A stretch of DNA of 60,000 nucleotides. It comes from Schmidtea polychroa (Eukaryota). The position numbers and the translations under genes are program-made. The notes beneath the pieces are model-generated. The model did no database searches, was not told where the DNA came from, and saw only the letters and a program-made list of their open reading frames with translations. Positions within the stretch are counted from its first letter, which is position 1. Every line of letters begins with the position of its first letter. Shown here in pieces: positions 3,713-47,899 of this stretch. The stretch lies in assembly GCA_044892525.1 (NCBI GenBank), contig CM097885.1:14386001-14446000 (forward strand), read 5' to 3'.

Positions 3713-3722
3713 AAAATTAAAA

Positions 3723-4808: not shown

Positions 4809-4811
4809 ACA

Positions 4812-5118: not shown

Positions 5119-5200
<82 letters not shown>

Positions 5201-10437: not shown

Positions 10438-10809
10438 TTACTTTGAACCAGTGTATTTAGTAACAGCCTTCGTTCCTTCACTGACAGCATGTTTGGCCAA
10501 TTCTCCAGGCAAGATCAATCGGACAGCAGTTTGGATCTCTCTGCTGGAAATCGTTGATTTCTTGTTGTAAGTTGCCAACTTACTAGCTTCAGTTGCGATT
10601 CTTTCGAATACATCATTAACGAAGCTGTTCATGATTGACATGGCTTTACCAGAAATTCCAGTATCTGGATGAACTTGTCTGAGAACTTTGTAGATATAGA
10701 TACCATAGCTTTCTTTACGTTTGTGAAATCTCTTCTTTTTGTCGGATTTCACAACTTCCTTGGAAATCTTCTTTACTGATTTTGTAGCGACTTTTGTTGA
10801 AGGAGCCAT
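10438..10809 (-). CDS. H2B: Histone H2B (copy lacking the 3' stem-loop)
   Basis: Intact 123-aa H2[66 protein letters not shown]. Confidence 0.98.
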
Positions 10810-11355
10810 TTTAATCTGAATTTTATAAATGATAAAAGTTCATTCCTTCCTTATATATGATTATCATTTTTTTAAATATATTACGTTGCGGTATTTTCAA
10901 TGATAAAATTAGAAAATTTAAATTTTGTTTCTGAAAAAAAACTAATTCAGTAATAATTTTTTATTTTACAAATAGAACAAAATGTGCAATTATTACAGAA
11001 ATGAAAACCTGTTTAATTATTGAAATGTTTTTTTAATTAAAATTTTTTATAAATCATCCGCTTTTATGCAAATTATTTCCACGCAAGAAATTATTACGCT
11101 GAGATAACATTTTAAAATTAAAATTTCTTTTAGAAACTAATATTAATAATTAATTAATTTTTGTGAGTTGATGGATATGTCCCTTCCACACCATATCCCA
11201 TCCATACCACAACCCCTCCCTGGAGATTATTGTTAAACTCGTAATTTTATAACGAACAAGAAAATATATAGTCTATATATAGAAAAAATGCATAGTTTCC
11301 ATGGAAATGAGCTCCAAAGTCTCTAACTTCAACATCAAATACCATAATTTAACAT

Positions 11356-13089: not shown

Positions 13090-14760
13090 ATTAAACAACA
13101 ATACACACTTAAGTCTGTAAATATTTCAACCATTTTGAAGTTGTCGAACTGTTTCTTGATCCATCATATCACTCTCATAATCATCAAGTTCATAGATACC
13201 TAAATAATACCCAAATGCAAGATTAGTATTTTTCCCTACCCACAATCGCTTATCATCATTGTTTGACAAGGAGATTTTTATATTTTTAAATGTGTAAATT
13301 TGATGGTTACGCGACCCTATCCTAGATTGTGGTACTTAAAATATCTCGTTAGAGTTATAACAATCGAGATATGATTGATGATTCCACTAAATTAATTCCC
13401 TTCGCTTTCATACTAGTCTTAGTGCCTAAAAGACTAACATTTTGGTCTGAAGAAAACCCATTCACTATATCCAAGTCCTTTACTCTCATCCTTAAACTTA
13501 CCGATAACAGAATCGAGTTTTCTAGAATATAAAGGATGTGAAGGATCATAATTGGATGTGTCAAGCAGATTATCTCTAATCATTGGCGGTAATAATACAT
13601 TTAATTTACAGTCTTTAATTTCTAAAAAGAAAGAGTCTGTATCTCCGGAAACAATATTTATTTTACAATGAAACTCGCACCTATACTTGTCCAATTCAAT
13701 ATATTGAAGTTGATACATGCGCAGTTTAGATAGATCTAGTACAGACTGCCCAATATAGCTGGGTCTATCTAAACAGATTTGATCCTTGTTCAAATGTTCC
13801 GCAACTAAATCACAAGTAATTGTGATAGATTTTCTAAATTAAGGTTTTGATGCATATGTAATAAGCTTTTCTGCGGAGTTACAAAGTCTCAAATTCATGC
13901 GCTTTTTTAAATTTTCGACTGATTTACCATATAGGCTATTATTGTAAAGTTTAAATAAATCTCTATAAAGCTCGCTAGTAGAAGTCACACCTAATTGCGT
14001 GTTTTTGTCAATATATGTTTTAAAAATTGATGCTTGTTTAAATTTAATGGCACGATGAACATTTACAACGACTGCCCCCCAATTCAATATAAAATTTTAA
14101 AAGTCTCTAATGAAGAATATGGTTCTTCTTGGCCCAATGCGTGAGCATCAACTTTTCAACTTTAGAACCGGGTGGACATATCTTATCCGGAGCAAGAGGA
14201 AAATCTTTCAAAAAACCATGCAACAGATTAGGGATATTTATATCGACTTCCATAGTGTAACCATATGAAAGTGTTTCAATATCCGAATTTATACACTCAT
14301 GCAATATAGATTCAAGATTATTATAAACCCAAGTAAAATCGGCATAAGGAAGTTTGTGGCTAAGAGCCCAACCATACAAATTATTAATATCAATATATAA
14401 TAATTCTGTGTTCTCCGATGTTGAAACATGATGCTGGTTAACAAATGTCAAACCACCTCGTATTCCTCCCTCATAAAAATTGAACATTTCCATATCCTGC
14501 AAAAGTTCTATCGGCTTTTGTAACGTAATGAATGCTGATGCCTATGACATACCAGGAATGCCATAGAAATTCAGAGGTTTAAGGCCATTGTAAGCAATGG
14601 CCTTTGCGCGGAATTGTTGGAAATAATCAGCCAAGAGAAATACATCTAATTTAAGATAAGTTAACAAGTAGTTCAAAAGATTATTACAATTCTGCCGAGT
14701 CCAAATTTGTTAGGCAGTAGCATATTCATCTGCCGTAACACCATCCAAAAGTAGGTAATT
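13090..14760 (-). pseudogene. Protein-primed family B DNA polymerase of Maverick/Polinton type, fragmented
   Basis: YLKLDVFLLADYF, GGIRGG, YIDINNLYGWAL, FKLYNNSLYGKSVEN, YIGQSVLDLSK, GDTDSFF, IGKFKDE, NDDKR; multiple stops and frameshifts. Confidence 0.95.
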
Positions 14761-14989
14761 AGAGGCTCCCTGGATCAAGCACCCATGGCGGGGGGGTGGG
14801 GGTTTTGCTCCAGGAATTTCTTTCTGCTTTTTGATTATGCAATTACTCCAGTAATATTTTGTAATATTTTTCAATACATTTAGATAGGCCCTATAGAAAA
14901 AAGACCAAGATTTATCAGTCTATAGTGAGGGGGTCTCCTTGGTCCTGGGATTTTCAATACAAAATCCTATTATCACTAAAAAAGCATAG

Positions 14990-15872
14990 TAACTTCTTCA
15001 GCCACTCGATTCTTCTTTCTTTCGCTCCTTCTTGTGAATGTAGTTCGACTCGATGAGGTGATAGAAATCTGGCGATTTTATATGGGCCATCGTATTGCAT
15101 ACCATCCTTGTGCCTGTTCTGCGGCTTTTTACGTATGAGTATCTCCTCCCCTACCTCGAAAACACGAGTGCCCATCTTTGTCTTATCCATAGCTCTCATA
15201 GTGTCTGCGGCTTTACTCGAGTTAAATCTCGCGTCTTCGATTCTTTCGCTTCTTGATATCTCAGCTTGTTTCAGGTTAGAGTGTAGGTTAACACTCCGTC
15301 CATAAATTATCTCAAATGGTGATAAACCTGTAGCACTTTGTCGACTGCTATTTATAGTGAACTCTATTCTGGGTAGACGTTCGTGCCAGTTTCTCTCTTC
15401 ACATCCGCCTGCCAATGTTGCTGTAATAAGATCTCTTATCGTTCGTATGGCTCTTTCGGCTAAACCATTTGATTGGTGTTGATAAGGTGAGCTGAATTCC
15501 TGTTTGATTCCAAGTTTCTGGAGCTTCTGTCTTAGGAAATTCCTTTCGAAATTTCGGCCTCTATCTGTTAAAATACTCTTCGGTTTTCCAAAACGATAGA
15601 TCCAACTATTAAGTATTGTTTTGAAAATGGTCCCTTCGTCTTGCTTTGTGATTGCAGTTAAAGAAATCAGTTTGCTATAACGGTCCACCATTACTACCAT
15701 ATATTTTTTTTGGCGTTTATTTCCATGTAAGCCACATCTATAACAATCTGTTCTAGGAATTCAGAGCTATACTTTTTCCATAGCTTCTGTTCTTTGGATA
15801 GTATATATATATCTAATCTTTGATTTTCCTTCCTTAGCTTCTTCATGTCTTGTTTGACACTGGGTGCAAACC

Positions 15873-15873
<1 letters not shown>
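14990..15873 (-). mobile_element. Partial second copy of the Gypsy integrase region with an internal deletion
   Basis: Near-identical to ~17495-18760, but ~370 bp are missing at ~15770. Confidence 0.92.
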
Positions 15874-15924
<51 letters not shown>

Positions 15925-15927
<3 letters not shown>

Positions 15928-16410
15928 GGGTTATTGAGTTGGTGACAATATTTGTAAATTCAAACCTTTAATCTGGCTCCAAAGCGTGTTTATTAATTCA
16001 CAATTCAACACTCTCGAACACAATAAGCTTTATTAATATCCACACGTAATAGTACAAATTTCAATTACAACCAATTAACTATAACCAATTTATCACACAG
16101 AGCTTATTTCGACACTACGTGAATAGCCCTTTCTGTAATAACAGCAATAATCACTAGCTGTCAACTACTCAATCACAGAATATGCTGATCGATTGTTCTA
16201 TTTGCTTTGAACACACAATTTATTTAATCCACCTTTACTTTATATTCAATTTTATACAAGATTCTTGTCACTTCTCTTTTCACTCTGTTTTGATTCCCCT
16301 TTTTACTCTGTCGTCTCTAATTTTACTCTACTTTTTGCCTCTAATTTCGTTTCGTTTTGCTCTCAACTTCGTTCTGTTTCCCTTCTACTTTTCGCTCCAA
16401 ATTTGTCACA
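15925..16410. repeat. Truncated LTR-family fragment bounded by (ATT)n tracts (15875-15927 and 16411-16486)
   Basis: Similar to the start of the solo LTR at 55009 and to 59497-60000. Confidence 0.75.
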
Positions 16411-16416
16411 TTATTA

Positions 16417-16486
<70 letters not shown>

Positions 16487-16487
<1 letters not shown>

Positions 16488-17318
16488 AGATAACGCCAAT
16501 CAAATACATTTTTCACGATATATTTCGGCATTTTTCGACAGTCAAATAAATTAAATAGTGTGAGCAAGGATGATGAGCCTAAATTTGTGTTAGTATTGCC
16601 GTACTCAGAAGGTTTTAAGGATTATAAAGTGAATATAAGAAAGCAGTTAGGCAATTTAAACTATAGGATAGTGTCAACTTCATGGAAAGTACGCAATATG
16701 TTTATTAATAAGTAAAAAACTCTGGTCGAATTGTGTTCCGATCTCGTTTATCAGTTTACATGTAATGGGGGTAATGCCACATACATTGGAGAAACTTCCC
16801 GCCATCTCTGTATTCGAACTCAAGAGCATTATAGACCGAAGGCATTGACCCATATTGGTGAGCACAATAAGGGCTGTAAGATTAAAATAGGAATGTCTGA
16901 TTTCAAAATTTTATAAAAAAATTTCGATAATTATTGGGAACGTGTGATTTGTGAGGCGTTGTTGATAAAATCATTGAATCCGAAAATTAATGTGCAGAAT
17001 GCAGTGAATACTTGTGTTGTAAATGTTTTTAAATAATTTTTTTTTCTTGTATATTGTATGTATTGATTGTTGTGTTAAATTAAATAATTAATAAAATTTT
17101 ATTAAATTAAATTTTGAATGTTTAAATTTTAAAAATAATATATTAATTTAATTATAATTTTTAAAAATATTTAAATGTTTTTATTAAATAAAAACGTTTT
17201 ATATAATTAATAAATTTGTTTAAAATCCTTAATTTACATAGTTATTATATCCCACCTAATGATGACAGGAAAACTGTCGAAATATATCGTGAAAAGAATG
17301 TTTGATTGGCGTTATCTT
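16487..17318 (+). mobile_element. Penelope-like element 3' fragment (GIY-YIG endonuclease remnant) with inverted terminal pLTR pieces
   Basis: VLPYSEG..LVYQFTCNGGNATYIGETSRHLCIRTQEH..EALLIKSLNPKINVQ. 16487-16527 is the inverted copy of 17278-17319. Confidence 0.9.
17253..17291 (+). ncRNA. Minimal hammerhead ribozyme motif of the Penelope pLTR (core mutated to CUAAUGA)
   Basis: CAC-CTAATGA-T-GACAG-GAAAA-CTGTC-GAAA-TATA-TC-GTG: stem I, stem II, palindromic tetranucleotide and UC cleavage site. Confidence 0.7.
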
Positions 17319-17480
17319 AGTTAAATCCATCTTTAGATCCATCTTTAAATTTGCAGCAAAAATCTTGGAACTAACAATATATATTTAATCAAAGAATTTA
17401 TAAATAACAAGTTTTAATTAATTCACAAAAACCGCAAATTCCTAATTATTAAAACAACAAGATATCTAACTCACCCCTTC

Positions 17481-18675
17481 TTAAGACTTTTTCCACTTCT
17501 TCAGCCACTCGATTCTTCTTTCTTTCGTTCCTTTTTGTGAATGTAGTTCGACTCGATGAGGTGATAGAAATCTGGCGATTTTATATGGGCCATCGTATTG
17601 CATACCATCCTTGTGCCTGTTCTGCGGCTCTTTACGTACGAGTACCTCCTCCCCCACCTCGAAAACACGAGTGCCCCTCTTTGTCTTATCCATAGCTCTC
17701 ATAGTGTCTGCGGCTTTACTCGAGTTAAATCTCGCGTCTTCGATTCTTTCGCTTCTTGATATCTCGGCTTGTTTCAGGTTAGAGTGTAGGTTAACACTCC
17801 GTCCATAAATTATCTCAAATGGTGATAAACCTGTAGCACTTTGTCGACTGCTATTTATAGTGAACTCTATTCTGGGTAGAAGTTCGTGCCAGTTTCTCTC
17901 TTCACATCCGCCTGCCAATGTTGCTGTAATAAGATCTCTTATCGTTCGTATGGCTCTTTCGGCTAAACCATTTGATTGGTGCTGATAAGGTGAGCTGAAT
18001 TCCTGTTTGATTCCAAGTTTCTGTAGCTTCTGTCTTAGGAAATTCCCTTCGAAATTTCGACCTCTATCTGTTAAAATACTCTTCGGTTTTCCAAATCGAT
18101 AGATCCAACTATTAAGTATTGTTTTGAAAATGGTCCCTTCGTCTTGCTTTGTGATTGCAGTTAAAGAAATCAGTTTGCTATAACGGTCCACCATTACTAC
18201 CATATATTTTTTTTGGCGTTTATTTCCATGTAAGCCACATCTATAACAATCTGTTCTAGGAATTCAGAGCTATATCTAGGAATAAATGTTTCCTTGGTTC
18301 TTGTCTGATCGATCTTTCTCTTAGCGCAGATCTCGCAACATTGTAAACAGAGTTGGATTGTTTCTTGCATTTTCGGCCAATAAAATATCTTTTCCATATA
18401 ATGAAATAATTTCTTAACTCCAATGTGACATAGTTCTTCATGTAGTGTTGTTGTTAACAGGCCTGCAAATGTTTCTGGGACTAACATTAAGATATTTTTG
18501 TTCTTTTCTACTGTTATTAATCCTCCATAAATTTGTGTATTTTTTACGTTAAAAGGAAAACAATTCTTTTTCTCCCGTGTACATCCATTTTCCAATATCT
18601 CTCGCAGCTCTCGAAACCGAATGTCCTTTTGTTGTTGTTCCCATACTTTTTCCATAGCTTCTGTTCTTTGGATAG

Positions 18676-18706
<31 letters not shown>

Positions 18707-20600
18707 AATCTTTGATTTTCCTTCTTTAGCTTCTTCATGTCTTGTTTGACACTGGGTGCAAACCATACTTTTTAATCTTGATAGTCCATCTGCATTTGAG
18801 TGTTCTTCGCCTTTCCGATATTTTAGTTCAAAATCATATTCCGACAGGTTAGCTAACCATGTTTGGAATTGCGGACTGATTGGCGTTTTTGTAGTGTTCA
18901 TGAAAACCAATGCCTTGTGGTCGGTGCGAATTATGAATTTTTTTCCGTACAGATATTCTCTAAAATGCATGACGTATTCATGTACGGCGAGCAGTTCTTT
19001 CCTGGTTACACAGTATCCCTTTTCATGTGATGACATATGTCTCGAGCCATAAGCTATGACAGATTCTTCTCCATCTTCTGTAATTTGACTCAAAACTGCA
19101 CCAATGGCTCCGAAACTAGCGTCTGTGTCTAAGATAAAAGTCCTATCTTCTCTTGGAAAATCAAGGATAGGTGCTTCGCACAACCGTCTCTTCAGAGTTT
19201 GGAAGCTCTCATTGCATTCTTTAGTCCAATTTATATCTTTATCGCATCCAGATGTTGCAGCGTATAATGGTTCGGCGATTTTGGCATAGTCTTTGATGAA
19301 TCTTCTATAGTAGTTCGTTAATCCGAGAAACGATCTCAATTGTTTTGAACATTTTGGTACTTCTGCTTTCTCGATCTCTTCCACTTTCTTCCTGTTTGTC
19401 TGGATACCCTTCTCGTTAATTGTGTGACCAAGGAAACACAATTCTGTTTTATTGAATTTGCATTTTTCTGGATTTATCTTAAGTCCTGCCAATTTAATTC
19501 TTCTGAATATTTCCCTTAATAGCTCATCGTGGTCTTTTTGACTTTTACCATATACCAAGATATCATCTAGATAAACTACTACTCCCTTGAATAGCATTCC
19601 TTCTAGAACTGTGTGCATCAGTCTCTGGAATGTCGCAGGAGCTGTTGCTAAGCCAAACGGTAGTCTATTGAAGCAAAATTGTCCTTCTCTTGTACTGAAT
19701 GCAGTCATTTCTTGAATTTCTGGAGCCAACTCCACTTGATAATACGCCTGACATAAACCGATTGACGAAAATACTTTTGCATTCGCGAGACAGTCTAGTA
19801 AGAATTTGGTGTTAGGCATAGGAAATGACTCTTTTTCTGTTATGGAATTTAATCCAGGATAATCTACACACATCCTGATAGATCCATCTTTCTTCCCTAC
19901 TATAACTAACGGGGCGTTCCAAGGACTCTTGCCACATCGAATAACATTTGCTTTCATTAACTCTTTTATCAGTTCTTTAATCCTTTTCTCCATGTGCATT
20001 GGTTGACGTCGAGGATGTTGCATTATTGGGCCTCCTGTTATCCGCATCTCATGTCGAACTAAGTTTGTAAATCCCAGATCGAATTTCGATGCCATAAAAA
20101 TTCCGCCGTATTCCCTGATCATTCCTTCAATATCTTTATTATTGTCACCTGCCATCGCCACTAGTGCTTTATTTATTCTTTCTTCATCAGTGTAAATTTT
20201 GTTTATCAATGACGTTTCTATATTATTGATTTTCACTAACTTAACTCCAAACTCTTTCATTGTATCAATGCCCCCTATGAATTCGGGTTTGATCTCTTTT
20301 ACCACTACTACTGTGATTTTTTTGGTCTTCTGATTCCATGTGGCCGGTATAGTCATGTATCCCATTGCTTATTCACCTCCAGTTGAAAAAACTCCGCACA
20401 ATAATATCATACTACGTTTAAGTTCTGGTTTGCCTATTTTCTCCCACAAACTCTTGCTCATGACTGTTAGTGATGCTCCAGAATCCCATAACATCTCTGT
20501 TTCGGCATTATTCAACATTATTTTACTCCAATTTCTTCCATCTTTCGTCTGGTACATCTCTTCTTCTGCCTCGCCTCTTCGTCGTTCATTTCTTATTTCA
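17481..20600 (-). pseudogene. Gypsy pol (protease, RT, RNase H, integrase), stop at ~20369 and frameshift at ~18205
   Basis: WDSGAS, LPFGL, YLDD, FILDTDAS, HHCC finger, ILTDRG..SNGLAER and GPY motif. Confidence 0.96.
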
Positions 20601-20604
20601 CAAT

Positions 20605-21900
20605 TTATTGTCTTGACTCCACCGACGAAATGAAACCCATGGAGTCGCTGTTGTTTTTTCCGTCTTCTCTCAATATAGTATATTTTTCAGGGACATTGTA
20701 TCTATCTTCAATGTCGCTGTGAGCAGTTCTGAAATCCTGGCTGTTTTCGGTGTAATCTCTTCTTTCAGATTTTGAATCTTCTTCTTCTATGCACGCTATT
20801 CTTTGATATCGGTGTGGAACCTCTTTCTGTAACGAAAAACAATCTCGGAAACCGTGACCTTCCTTGCCACATATCAGGCATTTATTTCCCAGTAGACACT
20901 CATACCTTCTGTGTCCCTTTTCGCCACAGCAAAAACAATCACCTACCGTTAATTTTGGGACCGATGCTTGTGGGAGTCCTCTACTTTCTTTATACAGCCT
21001 CCTTGCTATATTCTTCATGGATATTGTTGGCAGCTTCCTTTCTGAGCAATTCGGGATTCTCGCATTTCTCAAGAATTGTTCTCTTGGAGATTGTTCTCGA
21101 CGACCATGGTTATTTCCTTCATATTGTATTGGTCCGCGTATAGGATGTTCGTCTCTTCTTGATCTGTGGTGACTAAATCGGTCTTCTGATTGCCTTCTTT
21201 TTGGTGATGTAGGCATGTGATTTTGGGTATTCTGTTGAATTCTCATCTGTCCTCCCTCAGTCACGCTAGCGTATGTTCTTTGACCGATTGCTTTAACAAA
21301 TTCTGTTTTATGGTTTCCATTTTTGTTACTTTCAAAAGTTTTCGCCAATTATCTCGTTTCTTCAATTTTTGTTTCTGGTTTCGTCAATAGTATCTCCCGC
21401 AGTCTCGCATCGCGTGCTTTATTTGAGATGAGGTCTTGAACAATATCTTCTTCTGATCGTCCTGAATTTACAACTTCAGCTAAAGCTTTTCTTAGCCGTA
21501 TCTTAAAAGCTGCAAACCTTTCATCATCTTCCTGTTCCATAGCTGCCAATTCTCTGATTTTGTCAGTTATAGATTTTGTAATTGTGAACGTATTTAAGAA
21601 CCACGCTTTGGCTTTTACATCTGTTGTTTCTGTTTCTCTGACGTTTCCCCACAATGTCTTTGCTTCTGCCACTAATAACACATCGAAAGTGCTTGTCAAT
21701 CGCTGTCCATTTGTCAGCAACCATTCTTCTATATCTCTGATCCATTCTTCGGCTTCTTTTAAACCTCGTCCATCATATCGTCTGATGTTCAGTGTGAGCA
21801 TGTATTGGCATGATTTCGGTAGGCATTCCATTAGCGATTTTGTCGATTTCGAAATGGCGTTGATATTTTGATTTTCGGCTTGGTCGCCAGTTAAATCCAT
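20605..21900 (-). pseudogene. Gypsy gag with two CCHC zinc knuckles, in-frame stop at 21349-21351
   Basis: CFCCGEKGHRRYEC and CLICGKEGHGFRDC; two abutting ORFs in the same frame. Confidence 0.9.
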
Positions 21901-22031
21901 CTTTAAATTTGCAGCAAAAATCTTGAAACTAACAATATATATTTAATCAAAGAATTTATAAATAACAAGTTTTAATTAATTCACAAAAACCGCAAATTCC
22001 TAATTATTCAAACAACAAGATATCTAACTAA

Positions 22032-25479: not shown

Positions 25480-27490
25480 AATTTAGGTGAATGCCAGGTC
25501 GTGGACCCAACAATGATGATGTTAATTAATTATATGTAAGCCTGGTCAAAGTGGTGTGCAATATCCTGATCACGACGGCTTTAATCACCCTTGCATAATG
25601 TTGGGCTAGAACTTATTTCTAGACCCTAAATCTTATAAATGTGACAAAATGTGTCTGCACATAGCATGCATACCTGACAATAGGTTTAGTTAAATACAAT
25701 GATAAAAACACCAAATAAGCAATATTAATTAAGAAAAACACAACAGAAAATAAAAACATTGAAATTAAATAAAATCTCACAAATGCAAGAAGTATTGCAT
25801 GAAAATTAACTCAATCATAACGGAGAAACATAAAAAATTACAAAACACAGACTCGAATGACATCGAAAGATGGTAAAATACTAAATTCTAGATGAAATTC
25901 CAGAACAATTCATAAAAATGGCGACATCCATCATAAAAGCTATGTAAATCAACAAAAGTTAATAAAAATAAATAAATTAGTTTTAAAAATAAAAATTTGA
26001 AAAAAGAATTTAGAAAAAACAACATTAAAATAAAAATTAACCTTAATTTAATATAGAAGGTTCTGGAATTGCCCAAATCCATCATGGAGGCAAATTTAAC
26101 AAAAAATAATTAAAGAATAAAAATTTAAAAATAAAAATAAAAATTATGGCACTAAAATTGCCATTAAAATATATCAAAAATAGAAAATAGAAAATTCTAG
26201 AATATAATGAATTCGAGTTTGTTTTAATGCATCAACACGCACACGTGTATTTTGCATGCACAAAACTAGGTATATACCGACACATTTTAGTCACAAAAAC
26301 ACTCTTTATGCCAAATTTCCTTTTGTCGAAATTTTAACTATCGATTTTATTGGAAAGTAAGCATGATATGTTGTTTATTATCATATTATTATAATACAAA
26401 TATTAATGATCGATTTTATATTTTTATTTTTTTTTATTTAGTATGTAAGAGGGGTTAAAATCGAATTGATTGATCTTCGATTTTGATCCGTCCTGCATCT
26501 AATCTATTAAATTTAGCGTCATTGAGCACACAGCCTTGAGACATGCAGACCACCTCCTGTCACGCATTAATCTATATTATATGTTGCGGGGTCGTCGGAT
26601 GTCGTACCGACTCGGTGGTATATGCCACCGGGTTCGTCGATGAATTCCATCTGGTACGGCGGAGTTTCTAAAACTCATTGTAATGTATTGTAATTTTTTA
26701 TTTTTTTGATTTTGTTAATCGTATGGTATGAATGCAAATAACAATTCTGCACGTTGCACGTGGAGAAGGTTTTTTATTTTATTTTTAAAAAAACAAACTA
26801 TATAGTAATAATTTACCATAGTAAATTATCACTATAGAAAAAAATTACAAAATTAAAAAATCGAAATTAATTGAATTAAAAATTAAGCTAAATCAAAAAT
26901 TTGATAATCTCGGATTCCTGCTCTAAGAAGATTCAAAAGATTTTGATTCTAATATATAAATTCAGATTTCAACTCCAATTAAGAAGATTCAAAAGATTCT
27001 TATTCTAATATAGAAAATTCGGATCCCAACTCTAATTAGGAAGATACAAAAGATTCTGATTTTAATATAGAAAATTCGGATCACAACTCTAATTAGAAAG
27101 ATACAGAAGATTCGGATTCTAATATATAAATTCAGATTTAAACTCCAATTAAGAAGATTCAAAAGCTTCTTATTCTAATATAGAAAAACCAGATTTCTCA
27201 AATTAAGAAGATTCGAGAGATTCAGGTTCTAATATAAAATTTCAGATTTCTCTAATTAAGAAGGTTATTATCGTTATTATATTACGGTAGTATATACATA
27301 GTATTATACATTACCGATTCACATAGACATTAGGGCTTGTCGTAGTGAGCATAATGTGGCCACGAAAGCAAGCAACTTTCTTTAAATCGACCTTTTTACA
27401 TGCACAATATACATATAATGTCTACACTAAAAATCTATACTAATACATTACCATAAACGGAGAAAAGCTCCAGACTCAAATTGATCACAA
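25480..27490. repeat. Dispersed repeat family, largely inverted homologue of ~49270-50345
   Basis: Blocks 25599-26310, 26585-26665 and 27325-27485 match 49860-50344, 49495-49565 and 49270-49440 in reverse. LTR-like TGTTGGG terminus at 25599 and 50344. Confidence 0.75.
26905..27262. repeat. Minisatellite, ~56-bp unit (AAGAAGATTCAAAAGATTCTGATTCTAATATAGAAAATTC..), ~6 copies
   Basis: Seen directly. Confidence 0.88.
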
Positions 27491-29831: not shown

Positions 29832-31289
29832 TATGTTTTAACTCTAATATTAGAATTTACAATTTTTAATTTTGACCCCCACTAAAGAACTACTACCATT
29901 TATCCAATCCCAGTTGTATCAATGCAAATTACTTATTTCTATACGCTTGACTAAATTTACAAGTTTTAAAGATTATAATTTATGAATTCTGTACGACCCC
30001 CTCAAGTAAAATGACCACCAACCCCTCCTAACCACGCCAAAATAAATGAAAATTTTCGCAGGCAACTACCCCCAAGTAATTTTCCGAGTTAGCTTAATTC
30101 GGCGTATATCTAACTTCAAGTGGAAATAAAAATCGAGTCAAAAATTTTTTTAGATAAAAATCAAAAGCCCGAACTGAAGTCAAACTTTATTAATAAATGA
30201 AAACTGAAATTCCAAAAATTCTAACAATATTTATTAAAAGTAAGGAAAGTATTGAAACCGATGGAATGAATAGAAATTAGAAATCCTCTAACAACCTGAA
30301 TATATAAACTACATTGTTCAATTTATCGATTGGAATTTCAAGTAAAATTATCGATTTTCCATTTTTCGGATCGATCAATAGGCGAGTGACGAACCCTTGT
30401 GCCATTAATAGCAACGTACCCGTCATAGAATATTGACTATAAATTCAGACACTGTAACCAATCCAACGCGTCAATTCCACGAATCGACCAATCACCATCG
30501 GCCATAAGGAAATATCAATTTAACACCCAATCGCATCGTAAATTAACCTACACTTACTCCAGAAGCGAACTCCGATAATATGTTAAAAGACAAAAATAAA
30601 TTAATTTTCAATCTAATAAAATTTAATAAAAAATTTATTAAAAAATTATTTTACATCACGTGACATTGTAAAATCTACACAAATATGAAATTCACATTTT
30701 AAGAACTTTTCCACTGTATTAATGTGATAATATTTTAAATAAAATTTAATTATTAATATAAATTTATTAGTTAATTATTTTGCACTAAAATTTTGAATTT
30801 TCGTAATTTTTGCACTTTAATTTCCTTTTGAATTTGAATTAATTTTGGAGGAATTTAATTATTTTTCTTAATTATTTATTTTGTGTATTTAATAGAAAAT
30901 AAAACTTAGAAAATTACATTAAATTGTCACAAAAATTAATTAATTATTAATATTAGTTTCTAAAAGAAATTTTAATTTTAAAATGTTATCTCAGCGTAAT
31001 AATTTCTTGCGTGGAAATAATTCGCATAAAAGCGGAAGATTTATAAAAAATTTTAATTAAAAAAAACATTTCAATAATCCTAAACAGGTCTTCATTTCTG
31101 TAATAATTGCACATTTTGTTCTATTTGTAAAATAAAAAATTATTACTGAATTAGTTTTTATTTCAGAAACAAAATTTAAATTTTCTAATTTTTATCATTT
31201 AAAATACCGCAACGTAATATATTTTAAAAAAATGATAATCATATATAACGAAGGAATGAACTTTTATCATTTATAAAATTCAGATTAAA

Positions 31290-31661
31290 ATGGCTCCTTC
31301 AGCAAAAGTCGCTACAAAATCAGTAAAGAAGATTTCCAAGGAAGTTGTGAAATCCGACAAAAAGAAGAGATCTCACAAACGTAAAGAAAGCTATGGTATC
31401 TATATCTACAAAGTTCTCAGACAAGTTCATCCAGATACTGGAATTTCTGGTAAAGCCATGTCAATCATGAACAGCTTCGTTAATGACGTATTCGAAAGAA
31501 TCGCAACTGAAGCTAGTAAGTTGGCAACTTACAACAAGAAATCAACGATTTCCAGCAGAGAGATCCAAACTGCTGTCCGATTGATCTTGCCTGGAGAATT
31601 GGCCAAGCATGCTGTCAGTGAAGGAACCAAGGCTGTCACTAAATACACTGGTTCCAAGTAA
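31290..31661 (+). CDS. H2B: Histone H2B (replication-dependent type, stem-loop present)
   Basis: Intact 123-aa H2B; differs from the 10438-10809 copy at two residues (A5/T5, S28/F28). Confidence 0.98.
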
Positions 31662-31696
31662 ATTGTTGATTTTCATTTAGTTTGAGAATGTTCAAC

Positions 31697-32569: not shown

Positions 32570-33349
32570 TTTACACCACTTTTTCCTATTTTTTTACTCT
32601 TTTTACTCTGCACACTTCAATTTCAACCACAATCTTGCGCAAGGAAAAATCTTCCAACGGGAGATCTCTCTTTCTGGTACGCTAAGAATCAAAATGATTT
32701 GGTTGACACTAAGTTTTAAATCGATTTTTATTCCCTTTCAATTTACTGTCAATCGCATTTCTTCAACCAACTGTCAATTCTGTTGACTTGACTGTTCTTT
32801 TTATACACATCCCATAATTCCATGAGTTCCTCATCAAATTAGTTCTGGTATCTTTTTTCCGGGATTCCCCTTGCCGACCTAATTGGGTTTGAGTTTGTAG
32901 CCTTCAGGCCTCCGGGTAATTTATTTATTTTTGACAACTTTCCCGAATTTAATTTCCAGCCTGCCAATTTCATTTTCTCATTCCCTTTCAGTTTCACTCT
33001 ACCTAATAAAATAATAATGTTGATCACTCGGGTTTTCTCACACTCCTCGAATTTTCTTTTAGCTAATTAATTTTTAATTAATTTTAGGTTTTTGTAATTA
33101 TTTCCTTCTAGGGACCCACGTTAACTTTATTATTATTATATTTAAACTTGTGTCATTGTCTGTCCATACCAGGTGTCCTTGGAAAATATTCTTTTTTAAT
33201 TTTTATGATTTTTTAATTAATATTTTGTATTTCTGATTATTATTGTGAATTTGATGTTTTTATTGATTTTTCATTTGCTTGTGTGCCTATTTCATCGGGT
33301 TTTATAGTTATAACATGTCGAGTCAGGCTGTAACTGTTTCTTTCCAACA
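32570..33349. mobile_element. Truncated LTR, inverted relative of 42923-43736
   Basis: Shared ATCTTCCAACGGGAGAT..TCTGGTACG block; ends CCAACA. Confidence 0.7.
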
Positions 33350-33968: not shown

Positions 33969-34576
33969 ATGGGATCAAAAATCAGCAAATCAAAAAATCC
34001 CAGAAGAATTCTAATGCTAGGATTGGACTCCGCCGGAAAGACGTCAATTGTTTATAGGCTGAAATTAAACGAACAGATGTTAACAATTCCAACGATTGGG
34101 TTCAATGTTGAGGAAATAAAAGTTAGAAAAGGTTTGAGATTCACAATCTGGGATGTTGGAGGACAGGACAAAATAAGGATGCTGTGGAGACATTATTACC
34201 GAAATAGCAGAGCCTTGATATACGTTGTTGACAGTAATGATAATGAAAGGATGGATATTGCAAAAAATGAGTTATTTTCAATTTTCGAATCAGACGACAT
34301 GAAACAGGTATATTCATACGTATTTTTACGTAACTCTAATGGGAGGTTTTTATCTAGATCCCTGTTGTTGTAATTGCCAATAAACAGGACTTACCAAATG
34401 CTATGTCTCCCGAGGAAATTCAAGAAAGATTAGAGTTAAAAAAGCTTGAACCTGCCCATAAATGGCACATGCAACCATGTTGTGCAATATCTGGGGACGG
34501 GTTGATTGAAGCAATGACAGCGGTTGCAAAATTGTCATCTGAGTACATTAAAATTTGTAAAAGAGAATTGAGATAA
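33969..34576 (+). CDS. ARF-family small GTPase (ARF-like), 2 exons: 33969-34307 and 34358-34576, 185 aa
   Basis: MGxxx[23 protein letters not shown]; a 50-nt GT-AG intron restores NKQD and CCAISGDG. Confidence 0.95.
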
Positions 34577-35134: not shown

Positions 35135-35768
35135 TCATTGAACTGAGCTGGCTGAACTTCTAATTTCGTAGTATTGGCTGGACAGAATCGAAACTTTCTG
35201 TATCATTTCCGGTAACCCCTTCCCATTCATAGCGCTGCATAGCACAAGGTCCCATCTGTGAGATTCTGTTAATTGTTTTAATTTTAAACCATCCGTAACC
35301 TCATCGGCAGTCATTATGTTTCGAAGGTCACTTTTGTTGCCGACTATTAAAACAGGAATCTAGAATTTTATAGTTTATTAGCTCATAAACACAATTTCTT
35401 ACAGTTCGCATCTCAATAAATGATAGCACATAATATAACTCTTTGCGAGCTTCATCAATCCTTGAGAAGTCATTGAGGTCTACCACAAAAATCAGAGCAT
35501 GAGCATGGTAAAAATTATGCCTCCATAGCGATCGCTGCTTTTTTTGACCACTGTAATCAATTAAATTACATTTTATTCCATTTTTCAAATAACTCTTCTC
35601 CAGATTGAACCCGGTCGTCGGAACTGTTGACACATATTCATTCAGTTTCCATCTGTAAAGAAGCGAGGTCTTTCCAACTGAATCAAGACCTAAGAGAAGA
35701 ATGTTCACCCGGGGATTTGATAGGAGCTTTGCAAATAATGAACAGAATTTGGTTAAAAAACCCCCCAT
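35135..35768 (-). CDS. Divergent ARF-like GTPase paralogue, 2 exons: 35768-35403 and 35359-35135, 196 aa
   Basis: MGxxxT, GLDSVGKT, PTTGFN, DYSGQ; a 43-nt intron at the same position as in the neighbour restores NKSD and CSAMNGKG. Confidence 0.92.
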
Positions 35769-37715
35769 GATAAAGTTAAATTATTATATTCATTTTTTTA
35801 CTAAAAATTGATTATAATTAATTAATATTTTTATATTATAAATAATTAAGCTCATTAAATTTCTTGTTTTGCTTTCATAATTAATTGTTTATTATCTGAT
35901 TGTTTAATGTTATCTTAATCAGGGACGGATCTACATATGGGCTAATAGGGCTATAGCCCTGGGCCCAGATCCACAAGGGGCCCAACCTCTCGGACATATA
36001 TCTATTATATTCTATACCAAGCCCGGCTTATAAGAGAAAACATCGAAACACAAAAAATTTAAAACACAAATTTACTAATATTTATTAAAAATCAACAAAA
36101 AATAATATATAACATTAAAACGTGATTAATTTTCATCACTTAATCACCTCAAGGAATGATCAGGGTCATTTTTATTAACCGGTAGTGATAAGACGCAGCT
36201 GCAGAAACAAATAATGACCGTATTGTAAATAAGCATTATTTGGTCGACTATTGTATCAGTATTTGAGAGTGCTGGTATGTAAATAGTAACTAGTTTTGTT
36301 ACGATAAACTAAGAAAAGACTTTTGCCGCTTCATTCGCCCAATAAATGAACTCGCATTGTTTCTGGGTTATACTTCAAATTGCATTATTTCGACTATCTC
36401 AGTTCGCAGTTGACCCTTGACCTCGAACATACGTAGAGCGTAGAGGACTAGAGGTATTCTTAAAACTTAATTTAATGGTGCACAAAACTATTTACTATAA
36501 ACAATTAATTGATACTTTTCCAAATACATTATTAAAAATTTTCCATACGATACCTATTACTAATTGTGAAGTCGAAAGATCATTCTCAAGAATGAGTTAC
36601 ATTAAAAATAAACAAAGAAATAAAATAAATAATGAGAGATAAGCGGACTTGATAATTTTATCAGTGGAAAGTGATTTAACGAAGTTATTAAGGAATATGA
36701 GCAGAATGAGCAGAAAGAATGTTCACCCGGGGATTTGATAGGAGCTTTGCAAATAATGAACAGAATTTGGTTAAAAAACCCCCCATGATAAAGTTAAATT
36801 ATTATATTCATTTTTTTACTAAAAATTGATTATAATTAATTAATATTTTTATATTATAAATAATTAAGCTCATTAAATTTCTTGTTTTGCTTTCATAATT
36901 AATTGTTTATTATCTGATTGTTTAATGTTATCTTAATCAGGGACGGATCTACATATGGGCTAATAGGGCTATAGCCCTGGGCCCAGATCCACAAGGGGCC
37001 CAACCTCTCGGACATATATCTATTATATTCTATACCAAGCCCGGCTTATAAGAGAAAACATCGAAACACAAAATTTAAAACACAAATTTACTAATATTTA
37101 TTAAAAATCAACAAAAAATAATATATAACATTAAAACGTGATTAATTTTCATCACTTAATCACCTCAAGGAATGATCAGGGTCATTTTTATTAACCGGTA
37201 GTGATAAGACGCAGCTGCAGAAACAAATAATGACCGTATTGTAAATAAGCATTATTTGGTCGACTATTGTATCAGTATTTGAGAGTGCTGGTATGTAAAT
37301 AGTAACTAGTTTTGTTACGATAAACTAAGAAAAGACTTTTGCCGCTTCATTCGCCCAATAAATGAACTCGCATTGTTTCTGGGTTATACTTCAAATTGCA
37401 TTATTTCGACTATCTCAGTTCGCAGTTGACCCTTGACCTCGAACATACGTAGAGCGTAGAGGACTAGAGGTATTCTTAAAACTTAATTTAATGGTGCACA
37501 AAACTATTTACTATAAACAATTAATTGATACTTTTCCAAATACATTATTAAAAATTTTCCATACGATACCTATTACTAATTGTGAAGTCGAAAGATCATT
37601 CTCAAGAATGAGTTACATTAAAAATAAACAAAGAAATAAAATAAATAATGAGAGATAAGCGGACTTGATAATTTTATCAGTGGAAAGTGATTTAACGAAG
37701 TTATTAAGGAATATG
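35697..37715. repeat. ~1.02-kb near-perfect tandem duplication (35697-36698 / 36715-37715)
   Basis: Copies include the ARL 5' end and a hAT left half; the differences seen are homopolymer lengths. Confidence 0.95.
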
Positions 37716-39369: not shown

Positions 39370-39666
39370 AAAATTAAACGAAAAGAAGTTAGTTGAGTAC
39401 TTGAATAAAGTTATGAAGAAGGTTACAGAAAACAACCAACTCAAAGTCCCAGTTGATAAACTAATCAGAGTGCTATTCTTCACTAAGTGTTGCAAAAAGC
39501 ATTGTATAGTCACCGAGCGGAGTGTTGAATTGATTGTCAGTGTAAAGTGAAAATTATTTGTGATCAGTAAAGATTTCTGTTGTCAAGTGTCATTTGTGGA
39601 TAAATCAAAGACACGCCTGGAGTCAGAGTAAGAAATTTGATTTATCACCAACCCAATAACCCAACA
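39370..39666. repeat. Truncated LTR fragment of the 23975-24991 family
   Basis: Similar to ~24658-24991; ends AACCCAACA. Confidence 0.8.
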
Positions 39667-40130
39667 AGAAGTAAGATATGCAAGATTAGGAATGATTTTT
39701 GTGGTTAATCGTGTTGATTTTAATATTGAAACATGAGAGACAAAGAAATTTCTCGCAATAATTGTTGAGAGTTCAGAGTATATCAAAATTGCTAGCTTAA
39801 TTCATATTTAGTTTCTTGGTCGAAAATGGATAAAGGTAAACCGATTGGCGTCAGCGAAAGTTTTGTAAAATTCGATCTATTTATTTACTAGATTAACAAA
39901 TAGCAGAATTTGTCCTTATGAAAGACATCCTGATTTGAAATTTTAGAAGAAAAAGTGATTGCCACAAGACTTGTATCTTGACAAATGTGAATGAGAATAA
40001 TATATGAAATTATGCTTTAAATTAAATAAAGTTTCAATATTGTTATTAAGACCTGGGTTAATTGATATAGAACACATTGAGTGAGAAATTATGTTAGAAA
40101 TAGCGATAATAGAATTTCAATATCATAATT

Positions 40131-40217
40131 GTTGAGATGAGCATCGGTGGTCCGGGGTGCAGGCTTCAAACCTGTAGTTGGTTGACACCGAAGTGTTTCG
40201 ATTCCACCTTTCCAGCG
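40131..40217 (+). pseudogene. tRNA-Sec: tRNA-Sec (UCA) copy 1, probably decayed
   Basis: Six substitutions versus copies 3/4, giving mismatches in the acceptor, D and T stems; upstream TATA block replaced. Confidence 0.8.
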
Positions 40218-40454
40218 ATTTTTGAAAATTTTCTTACTTACCCAATTTTACATATTTGCATTCCATTAATATAATTTCTCTCATAATATAATATTATAAT
40301 CATAAATATTATCAATCCTACTGATTAGGGGCCAATTTTGATAATCTCAACTGCGCTTATCATGAAGTTGAATTACAATTGCTTTTACTTGCAAGGGCCA
40401 CCCTTTATAATTAAATTTGTTCAAAAATCTAAAATTTCTATAGTTTTTCTATTC

Positions 40455-40492
40455 TACCTGACGATGACATGAAAACTGTCGAAATATATCGA
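40455..40492 (+). ncRNA. Minimal hammerhead motif in a Penelope-derived pLTR fragment (more decayed copy at ~44456-44493)
   Basis: CTGACGA-T-GACA-7nt-TGTC-GAAA-TATA-TC; flanks homologous to ~17210-17318; stem I weak. Confidence 0.55.
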
Positions 40493-41145
40493 TAAACAAA
40501 TTTTGAATGGTGTTTCTTATAAATTAATTATTATAATAATTCGACATTGTATTATTTTATAACATATTTTATGAAAAAAAAATGTTTAAATAAGAAGACA
40601 AATATTACATACAAGAATAAAAATATATATACTAGCATATGGCGTCGCTCGGAGAGGTAAGAAGAGCCATCGCCCTCTGAAAACTTTGGCCTAAAAACAT
40701 GGATTAAGTTGAACTTTGTTAGGAAGGTCAGATTTTGTATTAGATTGTATGGAAACATGAGCCAAAGTTAAGAATCGTCCTAGGTGGCACATAATACAAT
40801 TCTACTAATAAATTAATCAGTAGTTAATTTTTTTCACATTTTGATTTCGATATATAAATGTATTTTATCACTGAATAATTTATATTTATATTTAATTTTC
40901 AAAATTTTATGACAGAAATAAAAGAATTGATTACCTCAAGAATATAATTATGAGATAAAGGGTGGCCCTTGCAAGTAAAAGCAATTGTAATTCAACTCCA
41001 TGATAATAGCAGTTGAGATTATCAAAATTGGCCCCTAATCAGTAGGATTTATAATATTTATGATTATAATATTATTTTATGAGAGAAATTATATTAATGG
41101 AATGCAAATATGTAAAATTGGGTAAAAAAGAAAATTTTCAAAAAT

Positions 41146-41232
41146 CGCTGGAAAGGTGGAATCGAACCACTTCGGTGTCAACCGACTACAGATCTGAAGC
41201 CTGCACCCCGGACCGCCGAGGCTCATCCCAGC
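41146..41232 (-). tRNA. tRNA-Sec: tRNA-Sec (UCA) copy 2, variant with A37G and C39U
   Basis: Identical to copies 3/4 except the anticodon arm, GGCTTCAGATCTGT vs GGCTTCAAACCTGT; upstream TATA and T5 terminator retained. Confidence 0.9.
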
Positions 41233-41838
41233 AATTATAAATATCTAATTCTCTTATAAATAGATTATAAACACTTTACATTTTATTTATAATTATTATT
41301 GCAACAAATTATTTATCGTAAATTAATTAAAGTCCAGTACAAAGTTGATGTTATCGATATCTCTAGCAAATATATTAATAATTTTATTAACATCTCCATT
41401 AATGTCCAGGAGTATTTCTAATATTGGCTCCGAACTATGCTTTCAATTAGAAAACATTTATAAAATATTACCTCATTTCTACATATGTCTGAAATGGAAG
41501 AATATTTTGTAAAAGAAACAAGTACAATAGAATGATATTCACGAATATTCATCAATATGTTTCCGGGAAAGAAATGCAAAACAAGGCATGTGCCGGACAT
41601 TTTAGGAGAATAGTGAAACAAGCCACAAAATACATAAAGATAAAGTAAGAATTGAATTGTTGATTTTTTGAGAAGGCTTTTGAAATTATTAGAGTTGCAA
41701 GAGATATCGATAACATGGACTTTGTGTTTTAATTTAATTAATTTACAAATTTATTGAAATAATTTGCAGCAATAATAATTATAAATAAAATGTAAAGTGT
41801 ATATAATCTATTTATAAGAGAATTAGAAATTCATGATT

Positions 41839-41925
41839 GCTGGGATGAGCCTCGGCGGTCCGGGGTGCAGGCTTCAAACCTGTAGTCGGTTGACACCGAA
41901 GTGGTTCGATTCCACCTTTCCAGCG
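41839..41925 (+). tRNA. tRNA-Sec: tRNA-Sec (UCA) copy 3, canonical
   Basis: 87 nt GCTGGGATGAGCCTCGGCGGTCCGGGGTGCAGGCTTCAAACCTGTAG..GTGGTTCGATTCCACCTTTCCAGCG. 6-bp D stem, 4-bp T stem, long variable arm, G73; TATTTATAA at -30 and TTTTT downstream. Confidence 0.97.
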
Positions 41926-42659
41926 ATTTTTGAAAATTTTCTTTTTCACACAATTTTACATATTTGCATTCCATTAATATAATTTCTCTCATAATATAAA
42001 ATTATAATCATAAATATTATAAATCCTACTGGTTAGGGGCCAATTTTGATAATCTCAACTGCGATTATCATGGAGTTGAATTACAATTGCTTTTACTTGC
42101 AAGGGCCACCCTTTATCTCATCATCATATTCTTTAAGTAATCAATTCTTTTATTTCTGTCATAAAATTTTAAAAATTAAATATAAATATAAATTATTCAG
42201 TGATAAAATTCATTTATATATCGAAATCAAAATGTGAAAAGAATTAACTACTGATTAATTTATCAGTAGAATTGAATTATTCAATAAAATTAAGTTTTTA
42301 CTTTATTAATTAATAATGAATTATGTCATTTTATCACAATATATTTATAAATAAAAGTTATAAATAAAATAATAAATTAGTTTGTATAGTTTTCTGATTC
42401 CGCATAACAATACAGTGCATAAAATTCTAATGCAAATTAATTATATATTCAAAAATGCAGTGGCGTAGCTAGAATATGTGCCTCCTGGGGCGATCCTTAA
42501 CTTTGCCTCCTGTCCCCATATAATTATCTAACACAAGTCTGATCTAACTAAGAATGTGTAATAAATATATTTTTATCCTTTATGTAAAATATTTATTTTC
42601 TCATTTAAACATTATGTTGTAATAAAATATGTTATAAAATAATGCATGGTCAATTTATT

Positions 42660-42869
42660 GAGTATAGGACAATATCCCCTCGGACAATATCCCCTCGGAC
42701 AATATCCACCTGGACAAATACCCCCCCCCCACTCTTGTTAATAATGCATATATTTTAGTATGAATATAATAATAAAGACAGTGTAGTTTATTAACAAGTA
42801 ATTATTAATTAATTGCCCGGGGGATATTGTCCAGGATGATATTGTTATGGGGATATTGTCCTTATACCC
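42660..42869. mobile_element. MITE (MULE-like) with GGACAATATCCCC subterminal repeats, 8-9 bp TSD (C)AATTTATT
   Basis: Inverted arrays of GGACAATATCC at both ends; duplicated flank. Confidence 0.82.
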
Positions 42870-42922
42870 AATTTATTACAATAATTATGCTTATTGAATA
42901 AAATTGTGATAATTATTAATAT

Positions 42923-43736
42923 TGTTGGGGTTCAACAGGAGAGGCCCAAAAATGAGGTGAAAATCGATAAAAGACACTAAATTCAAAATAAAAATTTAAA
43001 GTACAAAATATTAATTAAAAATCAAAAATTTTAAAAATGAATATTTTCCGGGGGAAACTGGTATGGGCGGATGCTAAATAATGAGACGAGTTCAGCTATA
43101 ATAAAATAAAATCAATGGGGGGGTCCCAAAAAGGAATAAATTGCAAAAAAACAAAAATTAATTAAAAATTAATTAACTAATGGAGAACCCGAGCGAATTG
43201 AGAAAACCTGAATTAGCAATCCAATTTTGGGAAGGTAATTAATTTAGCCGAATAAAATAAAAGTGATAAGAGCCGTCAAAGAAAAGGGGCAATTCCCTTA
43301 AATTGAATTAGACCTACAAAAGGAAGCCCGGGGGAAGTTAGACCCAAACTAATTTACCAAAATAAAGTCAATTACCAAGTGAGTATAAAAGCAACTGGCA
43401 AGAAAACAAAACTGCCAGTTGGTCGAAGAAAAGAAAATAGAAGTTTGATGAGAGCGAAAAAGGAAACATTCAAATTAGTAGAAAATAAACAATTTAAAAA
43501 TCGAACGTACCAGAAAGGGACATCTCCCGTTGGAAGATCTACCCCTGTGTGAGATTTGTTGGCAAATTGAAAAGTGCAGACAAAACCTAATTGTATCAAG
43601 TGTGAGTAAACTAATAAAAGTGTAAAAGTGTAACTGCATCAATGTCAATAAAGATTTTGTGTTGGGTCGTTTATTTATTTTGAAAAGAACACAAAGGAGT
43701 CAGACCGTAGTACCGACTTACATTAAAAACCCAACA
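42923..43736. mobile_element. Solo LTR (TGTTG..CAACA), TSD ATAT, upstream of tRNA-Sec copy 4
   Basis: Termini and TSD read directly; the empty site is visible in reverse at ~41362-41384. Confidence 0.9.
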
Positions 43737-43879
43737 ATATATTTGCTAGAGATATCGATAACATCAACTTTGTACTGGACTTTAATTAATTTACGATAAA
43801 TAATTAGTTGCAATAATAATTATAAATAAAATGTAAAGTGTATATAATCTATTTATAAGAGAATTAGAAATGCATGATT

Positions 43880-43966
43880 GCTGGGATGAGCCTCGGCGGT
43901 CCGGGGTGCAGGCTTCAAACCTGTAGTCGGTTGACACCGAAGTGGTTCGATTCCACCTTTCCAGCG
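43880..43966 (+). tRNA. tRNA-Sec: tRNA-Sec (UCA) copy 4, canonical
   Basis: Identical to copy 3, with the same TATA and terminator context. Confidence 0.97.
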
Positions 43967-44672
43967 ATTTTTGAAAATTTTCTTTTTCACACAATTTTAC
44001 ATATTTGCATTCCATTAATATAATTTCTCTCATAATATAATATTATAATCATAAATATTATCAATCCTACTGATTAGGGGCCAATTTTGATAATCTCAAC
44101 AGCGATTATCATGAAGTTGAATTACAATTGCTTTAACTTGCAAGGGTCACCCTTTATCTCATCATCATATACCTTAGGTAATCAATTCTTTTAGCGTGTC
44201 GTAAAATTTTGAAAATTAAATATAAATGTAATTTATTCAGTGATAAAATTCATTTATATATCGATATCAAAATGTGAAAAGAATTATTTACTGATTAATT
44301 TGTCAGTAGAATTGAATTATTCAATAAAATTAAGATTTTACTAAAATGATTTATCATATAAATTATAATTTTTATAATTAAAAAAAATATTTTTTATTAA
44401 AAGAATACATTTAATAAATTTGTTAAAAAATCTTAAATTTCTAGTTTTTCTATTCTACCTGACGATGATATGAAAACTGTTGACATATATCGTTAAACAA
44501 ATGTTTGGATAGCGCTTTCTTATAAATGAATTATTATAATAATTTGACAATGTATTATTTTATAATATATTTTATGAAAACAAAAATATGTTTAAATAAG
44601 AAGACAAATATTACATACAAGGATAAAAATATATACGAGCACATAATATGTGAAGTGTAACTGGCGTCGCTT

Positions 44673-47471: not shown

Positions 47472-47899
47472 ACTTGGAGAGGTCAAGAAGAGCCACCTGC
47501 TTCTGCAAATTTTTGCCTACAAACATGAATTAAGTTGCAGTTTGTTAGGAAGGTCAGATTTTGTATTAGATAATTGTATGGGTACAGGAGGCAAAGTTAA
47601 GGATCGTCCTAGGTAGCACATATTTCAATTCTACTGATAAATTAATCAGTAATTAATTCTTTTGAAATTTTGATTATAAGACATTCGATTGATCTGAAAG
47701 AATACATTGTCATCGACGACGAATCTATCTGCCAAATTTCAGCTCGATCCGGTCAAGGAAAGTGGGTTAATTTTCCGTTGCAAGATCTGAGTGGCTCATA
47801 CAAACATACATACAAAGTGAAATTAATATAATGAGTTTAAAAATACAATTAAATGCAGCAATATATCAAACAGTATAAAACACGACTAAATATTATGCA

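Follow-up and report, generated by a model that had tools for sequence, protein, structure and literature searches.

A cluster of selenocysteine tRNA sequences in Schmidtea polychroa as a probable local birth-and-death family

Why should a gene that animals usually keep as a single copy occur four times within 3.9 kb? The locus that raises this question is a cluster of selenocysteine tRNA (tRNA-Sec) sequences in a 60,000-nucleotide stretch of Schmidtea polychroa DNA (assembly GCA_044892525.1, contig CM097885.1, positions 14,386,001 to 14,446,000, forward strand), hereafter the window; positions below are counted from its first letter. A first-pass annotation of the window had described a cluster of four tRNA-Sec genes. 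The four are not equal: copies 3 and 4 are intact, copy 2 is an anticodon-arm variant with two substitutions, and copy 1 is broken, with six. We consider it probable that these form a local birth-and-death family, produced by repeated short duplications, conversion and copy-by-copy decay, with no selection for dose.

Four tRNA copies in different states

The Rfam model RF01852 has four matches in the window, all at 40131-43966, which start at 40131 (+), 41232 (-), 41839 (+) and 43880 (+) and all carry a UCA anticodon. With scores of 57.9, 73.2, 79.2 and 79.2 bits for copies 1 to 4 (E 3.8e-9 to 1.1e-14), every match lies above the gathering score of 47 bits, and the four tRNA-Sec(UCA) sequences oriented +,-,+,+ that had been annotated are thus borne out. 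ARAGORN called three of the four as tRNA-Sec and missed copy 1. No fifth tRNA-Sec relic was found in the window by nhmmer, whose four matches at E<=10 were the cluster copies only.

Copy 3 (41839..41925, +) is an intact tRNA-Sec with a UCA anticodon, a 9/4 fold, A37 and G73; five consecutive T (T5) come after the gene. Copy 4 (43880..43966, +) is identical to copy 3. The 9/4 acceptor-T arm, 6-bp D stem and long variable arm are present in copies 2, 3 and 4, in each of which 29 of the 30 pairs are standard; a U8-U79 mismatch is common to all four copies, and none of the 30 pairs shows a compensatory change among them. At the discriminator (gene position 87), where G73 is used as a criterion for tRNA-Sec (PMC5330540), all four copies have G. 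A37, the isopentenylation site, is present in copies 1, 3 and 4 and replaced by G in copy 2, standard numbers being mapped from gene positions by way of the anticodon. Copies 3 and 4 therefore have every structural feature examined for the family, while copy 2 lacks A37 and copy 1 lacks proper pairing. Free-energy folding gave a weak signal (z -0.7 to -1.9) and was taken into account only in that copy 1 forms no cloverleaf.

Copy 1 (40131..40217, +) has six substitutions by gene position (C2T, G5A, C13A, C18T, C49T and G66T). Beyond U8-U79, three of the pairs in RF01852 are broken: acceptor pair 5-82, D-stem pair 13-26 and T-stem pair 66-74, the last within the B box, which is altered. Because homology with the other copies begins only ~25 nt upstream of the tRNA, the TATA-like site at -30 is gone. 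Judged by its sequence, copy 1 is a pseudogene. Copies 2, 3 and 4 have both an intact B box and a TATA-like site (41253-41262, 41809-41818 and 43850-43859, respectively), the latter being weak evidence in DNA so rich in AT, and T5 follows all four copies. Upstream elements are required for transcription of vertebrate tRNA-Sec (PMC2943599), and this vertebrate promoter model may carry over to a flatworm. With a TATA-like site at -30, a B box and a T5 terminator, copies 3 and 4 would supply ordinary tRNA-Sec through RNA polymerase III.

Copy 2 (41146..41232, -) differs from the intact form at two positions. A39G at window position 41194 corresponds to A37G in standard numbering, and C41T at 41192 corresponds to C39U, which leaves a G-U pair closing the anticodon loop. 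Every other pair is retained, as are the upstream region, B box, G73 and terminator. The apparent A37G and C39U changes both lie outside the contig difference rows listed. The mouse Trsp A37G transgene carries an identical substitution at position 37; it supports synthesis of housekeeping but not stress-related selenoproteins and is partly dominant negative (PMC3459062, PMC8583801). The mouse alleles, however, were engineered in 2-40 copies, whereas copy 2 is natural, carries C39U in addition and is known from sequence alone. One could imagine that copy 2 is an expressed isodecoder that shifts the selenoprotein set as the mouse allele does, and its well-preserved control regions would suit this idea. 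Yet a single variant copy would be diluted by the many others, C39U, two bases from A37G, weakens the anticodon stem, a pair of changes so close together could be an assembly error, and there is no sign that the variant is conserved elsewhere. We give this explanation very little credence.

With copy 1 broken and copy 2 altered, we rejected the idea of four functional genes. It could also be asked whether spare copies are kept as insurance against retrotransposons that target tRNA genes. None of the four copies is interrupted, all matching RF01852 from end to end, and nothing marks tRNA-Sec as a target, which makes this proposal hardly plausible.

Repeat units and exchange between copies

Self-comparison of the window places each tRNA in a larger unit: 40106..40408 (+) for copy 1, 40791..41379 (-) for copy 2, 41685..42378 (+) for copy 3 and 43736..44411 (+) for copy 4. 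The units are 0.3-0.7 kb long, with identities of 89-94% in self-comparison, and differ from one another by 4-12%. Past the tRNA, homology continues for 300-686 bp, and the units take in up to ~150 bp of upstream flank. The earlier description of units of several hundred base pairs thus fits copies 2-4, but the copy-1 unit is only ~300 bp. The copy-2 unit forms the left arm of an inverted repeat with the copy-3 unit (40791-41379 vs 41685-42280, 596 columns, 92.8% identity), near the bounds first claimed, and the two divergent copies are separated by a 305-bp spacer (41380..41684) that is unique in the window. Local amplification that includes inverted duplication is therefore supported by the units themselves.

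The flanks shared in these units indicate duplication at the DNA level and not retroposition. Retroposition of the kind that gave rise to human TRNAU2 was accordingly rejected, since 300-686 bp are shared and homology is not limited to the mature tRNA. Copy 1 recalls TRNAU2 in being a decayed second tRNA-Sec copy; the human sequence, however, is homologous over the mature tRNA only and has C73, whereas copy 1 shares ~190 bp of 3' flank and has G73 (PMC5330540).

The relationships among the units change along their length. From -145 to -76, copies 2 and 4 agree against copy 3 at 11 of 11 variable sites; from -7 to +161 the copy that stands apart is copy 2, at 7 of 7; and from +162 to +441 it is copy 4, at 17 of 29. 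Over 53 sites, a runs test on copies 2-4 gave 24 runs (P=0.00015 by permutation), and the zones are heterogeneous (P=7e-8, the zones having been chosen after seeing the data). That copies 3 and 4 are identical in the tRNA and different in their flanks, as first annotated, was confirmed at 87 of 87 tRNA sites, with the addition that the identical tract is 168 bp, from -7 to +161, and so longer than the tRNA. Copy 1 is likewise uneven: its private changes number 11 in 112 nt of the 5' part and 3 in 191 nt of the 3' flank (P=0.0015), so that its 5' part appears to be old and its 3' part young. Since the odd one out changes block by block, simple duplication is insufficient and exchange between copies is sufficient; gene conversion or unequal crossing-over would explain the mosaic units.

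Birth-and-death and concerted evolution are general features of tRNA and snRNA multigene families. The cluster resembles such families in its clustered duplicates, mosaic tracts and pseudogene, and differs from them in that it concerns a tRNA usually present once. Based on these findings, we propose the following scheme. Short duplications at the DNA level, some of them inverted, would have created a local tRNA-Sec family. Conversion would spread one working sequence among neighbouring copies, and selection would need only one such sequence. Repeat insertions and deletions would cut the units. Decay would follow in any copy deprived of its fold or, as copy 1 may have been, of its upstream promoter.

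Several smaller features lie around the units. A very high-copy interspersed repeat occupies the interval between copies 3 and 4 (42918..43735, bounds approximate) and has relatives at 32607-33270; in two public sequencing runs, X3 and X5, the summed contig depth over its bins exceeds 1,000,000 and 120,000, respectively. Behind copy 1 lies a tail segment (40412..40629, +) that recurs as a direct repeat behind copy 4 (44415-44635, 90%); part of it also follows copy 3 in reverse (42559-42659, 82%). The short element between copies 1 and 2 (40640..40790, +) has relatives at 42458-42557, where the sequence is reversed, and at 47473-47620; judging by a shared end motif, it may be the remnant of a miniature inverted-repeat transposable element (MITE). 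At 47473..47675 (-), we found a relic of a further copy-2-type unit (nhmmer E 1.1e-7), with no tRNA left, in which, as in copy 2, the short element adjoins distal flank, here ~55 bp of it. A small MITE-like inverted repeat of 15-bp subrepeats (42657-42713 and 42816-42872) cuts the tail of the copy-3 unit.

Repeat fragments that adjoin the units and a relic 3 kb away might suggest that the unit is itself a mobile element or a tRNA-Sec-derived short interspersed element (SINE). The units, however, include up to ~150 bp of upstream DNA and end at different points, and their depth is thousands of times below that of the true repeats beside them. The upstream flank and the low depth led us to reject a tRNA-derived SINE, and a mobile unit of any kind is scarcely credible.

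Copy number in public contigs

Among 24 public sequencing runs listed, 17 match the stretch wholly or partly, and four of these 17 (X3, X5, X7 and X10) were compared, as contigs. None of the matching runs listed is an RNA run, and of the 11 runs that share only a small part of the stretch, two are among the four compared and used as evidence. For the organism that we call A, six runs from two studies share 43-59% of the words of the stretch. An X3 contig at 39563-40177 runs from unique DNA into the first 47 nt of copy 1 with 1 other letter in 615, and a second one at 41365-41793 runs from the spacer into the copy-3 arm with none. From a different study, an X5 contig at 39760-40159 bridges the copy-1 junction, with 29 nt of copy 1 and 6 other letters, and another at 41392-41668 covers the spacer with 2.

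These contigs bear on the possibility that the assembly has written one gene several times. None of the contigs listed spans the whole cluster, and the overlap at the spacer/copy-2 junction is 15 letters only. The best-matching runs, X3 included, may be the source sample, and many multi-copy calls elsewhere were identical together with their flanks and were judged artefacts (PMC5330540). In our case, however, the units differ by 4-12%, with insertions and deletions, different ends and opposite strands. The bridging of the copy-1 junction in two studies argues against an artefact, as does that of the spacer/copy-3 junction in one, and the depth over the tRNA is higher, not lower. An artefact is therefore as improbable as a mobile unit.

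The tRNA has several times the depth of its flanks in X5, X10 and X7, the three of the four runs compared that gave a readable depth there. The X5 contig of 197 bp that covers the tRNA and trailer reaches a depth of 935 against 32-119 for four flank contigs, a ratio of 8-29, or 8-22 without the most AT-rich flank contig. In X10, from organism B, the tRNA contig has a depth of 94 against ~9-25 for the other contigs listed (ratio 4-9 against the three used), and in X7, which is unlabelled, 29.6 against ~5 (ratio 5-6). Contig depth does not equal copy number, library types are unrecorded, ploidy is unknown, and the GC content of the tRNA contigs is 37-46% against 18-31% for the flanks. With these reservations, the depths weakly suggest a family of ~8-20 copies that extends beyond the window and is multi-copy in related samples too.

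X3 also contains a diverged tRNA-Sec copy that is absent from the window. It aligns to 43794-44061 with 35 other letters in 268, has a depth of 677 and carries a compensatory-looking C2U/G85A pair in addition to G1A and D-stem changes. Of its 22 differences listed, it shares five with copy 1 alone, all at or before +18. At gene position 18 (window 43897), both X7 contigs have T at 29.6 of 29.6 depth, whereas C is found in copies 2-4 and in both published Schmidtea mediterranea genes (PMC7962491); T at this one site in one unlabelled run is possibly a variant homogenised across a lineage. The contig upstream of copy 1 (39563-40105) has a depth of 321 in X3 and 42 in X5, below the 509 and 119, respectively, of the spacer between copies 2 and 3. 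This may mean that only a subset of haplotypes carries copy 1, or that the spacer is itself duplicated.

A more ambitious account would have a conversion-homogenised family of ~8-20 genes kept for dose across species and including an expressed A37G isodecoder that tunes the selenoproteins. We regard it as very unlikely. Under this account, the family would be among the largest tRNA-Sec families known in animals, and its A37G isodecoder would act as a lever that has hitherto been examined in engineered mice only. The locus would carry greater weight with a conserved copy number of 8-20, or with expression of the A37G copy, because planarians allow knock-down and regeneration assays, by which the effects of tRNA-Sec dose and isodecoders on the selenoprotein hierarchy could be followed in a natural setting.

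Dosage, known systems and the rest of the window

Could several active tRNA-Sec genes be kept to meet a demand for selenoprotein synthesis? A lack of greater conservation in the tRNA bodies than in their flanks had been named beforehand as a result that would refute the first-pass reading, and it is what all four copies together show: 8 of 87 tRNA sites and 23 of 216 flank sites vary (P=0.44). Several observations nevertheless weigh against our neutral account. Between copies 3 and 4, differences fall at 25 of 428 flank sites but at 0 of 87 tRNA sites (P=0.009, post hoc); among copies 2-4, variable sites number 40 of 428 in the flanks and 2 of 87 in the tRNA (P=0.016). The flank part of the 168-bp tract, taken alone, is not unusual (P=0.11), and the deficit of divergence between copies 3 and 4 would also be expected from selection on two or more copies. 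Neutrality is, moreover, our default assumption, and a multi-copy state would be harder to call neutral if it lasts across species. When only near flanks are used, P is 0.04 for copies 3 and 4 and 0.07 for copies 2-4, the near-flank tests overall ranging from 0.04 to 0.17. Because the identity of copies 3 and 4 lies inside a 168-bp tract of a mosaic unit, conversion and selection account for it equally well.

Dosage selection, which the first-pass annotation had raised, would agree with the lower divergence of the tRNA body in copies 2-4, with contig depths that point, though weakly, to several copies in three samples with different labels, and with the selenoproteome of Schmidtea mediterranea, whose 19 genes are the largest set of three flatworms studied (PMC3828610). 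That number is, however, ordinary for an animal (PMC3828610), and tRNA-Sec copy number is uncorrelated with selenoprotein number (PMC5330540). In mice, 20 wild-type transgene copies caused little or no change in selenoprotein expression, tRNA-Sec not being limiting (PMC3459062). Only two of the four copies are intact here, and the identity of the tRNAs sits in a mosaic unit. Selection for dose is thus not demonstrated, and we consider it unlikely.

An effect on UGA readthrough had also been suggested. tRNA-Sec is delivered by a factor of its own at mRNAs that bear a selenocysteine insertion sequence (SECIS). General readthrough is therefore unlikely, and we rejected it as an explanation of the cluster.

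The multi-copy state itself is already known elsewhere, and the planarian cluster is one more such locus. The statement that animals usually have a single functional tRNA-Sec gene stands as a rule of thumb, but has many published exceptions: at least two copies were predicted in 151 genomes, among them 11 in the diatom Fragilariopsis, four each in the spider Parasteatoda and the lancelet, two in the flatworm Gyrodactylus and two identical ones in zebrafish (PMC5330540). The loci of that Secmarker survey resemble ours in having several G73 copies per genome, with intact copies mixed with structure-breaking ones. Likely functional duplicates in the survey carry compensatory changes, whereas the planarian copies have none, and the planarian copies are clustered, partly inverted and mosaic.

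In Schmidtea mediterranea, 457 distinct tRNA genes at 1372 loci have been reported, including two distinct SeC-TCA genes to which small-RNA reads were mapped (PMC7962491). Compared by eye, copy 3 agrees with SEC-TCA_tRNA_1 at 83 of 86 positions and with SEC-TCA_tRNA_2 at 85 of 87 (PMC7962491 Table S1); where one of the two differs from copy 3, the other agrees with it, and both have pair-breaking changes relative to copy 3. Agreement this close would by itself make a planarian host very likely. It also calls for caution in annotation that the published planarian SeC representatives resemble decayed versions of the intact tRNA found in copies 3 and 4. The accessible parts of PMC7962491 contain no discussion of SeC copy number or arrangement. 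In a literature search confined mostly to non-subscription sources, we found no published planarian tRNA-Sec cluster or natural A37G copy, although Fig. 1D/S1 of PMC7962491 and Fig. 1 of PMC2770079 may hold the number. There was no Schmidtea entry in three text supplements of PMC5330540 and no SeC entry in one text supplement of PMC2770079.

We view the cluster as a clear example of a "single-copy" gene that behaves like any tRNA family in a freely duplicating genome. Schmidtea genomes rearrange fast (PMC11410931), and the window, with a GC content of ~29% and rich in mobile elements, contains other, unrelated local duplications, which involve H2B genes, Arf-family genes and a 1-kb segment. 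Two histone H2B genes with their flanks (10432-11166 and 30927-31667) are inverted, 20 kb apart and 97.6% identical. Two diverged, convergent Arf-family GTPase genes lie at 33969-34575 (+) and 35331-35768 (-) (Pfam Arf E 4e-42 and 6e-29). In protein searches, neither the H2B nor the Arf sequences had a close match among named hits. A 1003-bp tandem duplicate (35697-36699 and 36715-37715, 99.8%), either a very recent duplication or an assembly artefact, takes in the start of the minus-strand Arf-family coding sequence together with the region upstream of it.

The mobile elements include a broken LTR-type retrotransposon at 14954-21942 (-), with reverse transcriptase, RNase H and integrase zinc-finger matches; within it, 780 bp of the integrase region occur twice (14992-15771 vs 17495-18274, 98%). 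A broken hAT transposase lies at 6823-9472 (-) (Pfam Dimer_Tnp_hAT E 3e-11). Fragmented reading frames of Polinton-like appearance at 2008-5342 and 13434-14541 gave weak P-loop ATPase matches for 3705-4049 and none for 13437-13838. A 57-bp minisatellite of 5.8 copies is found at 26924-27247.

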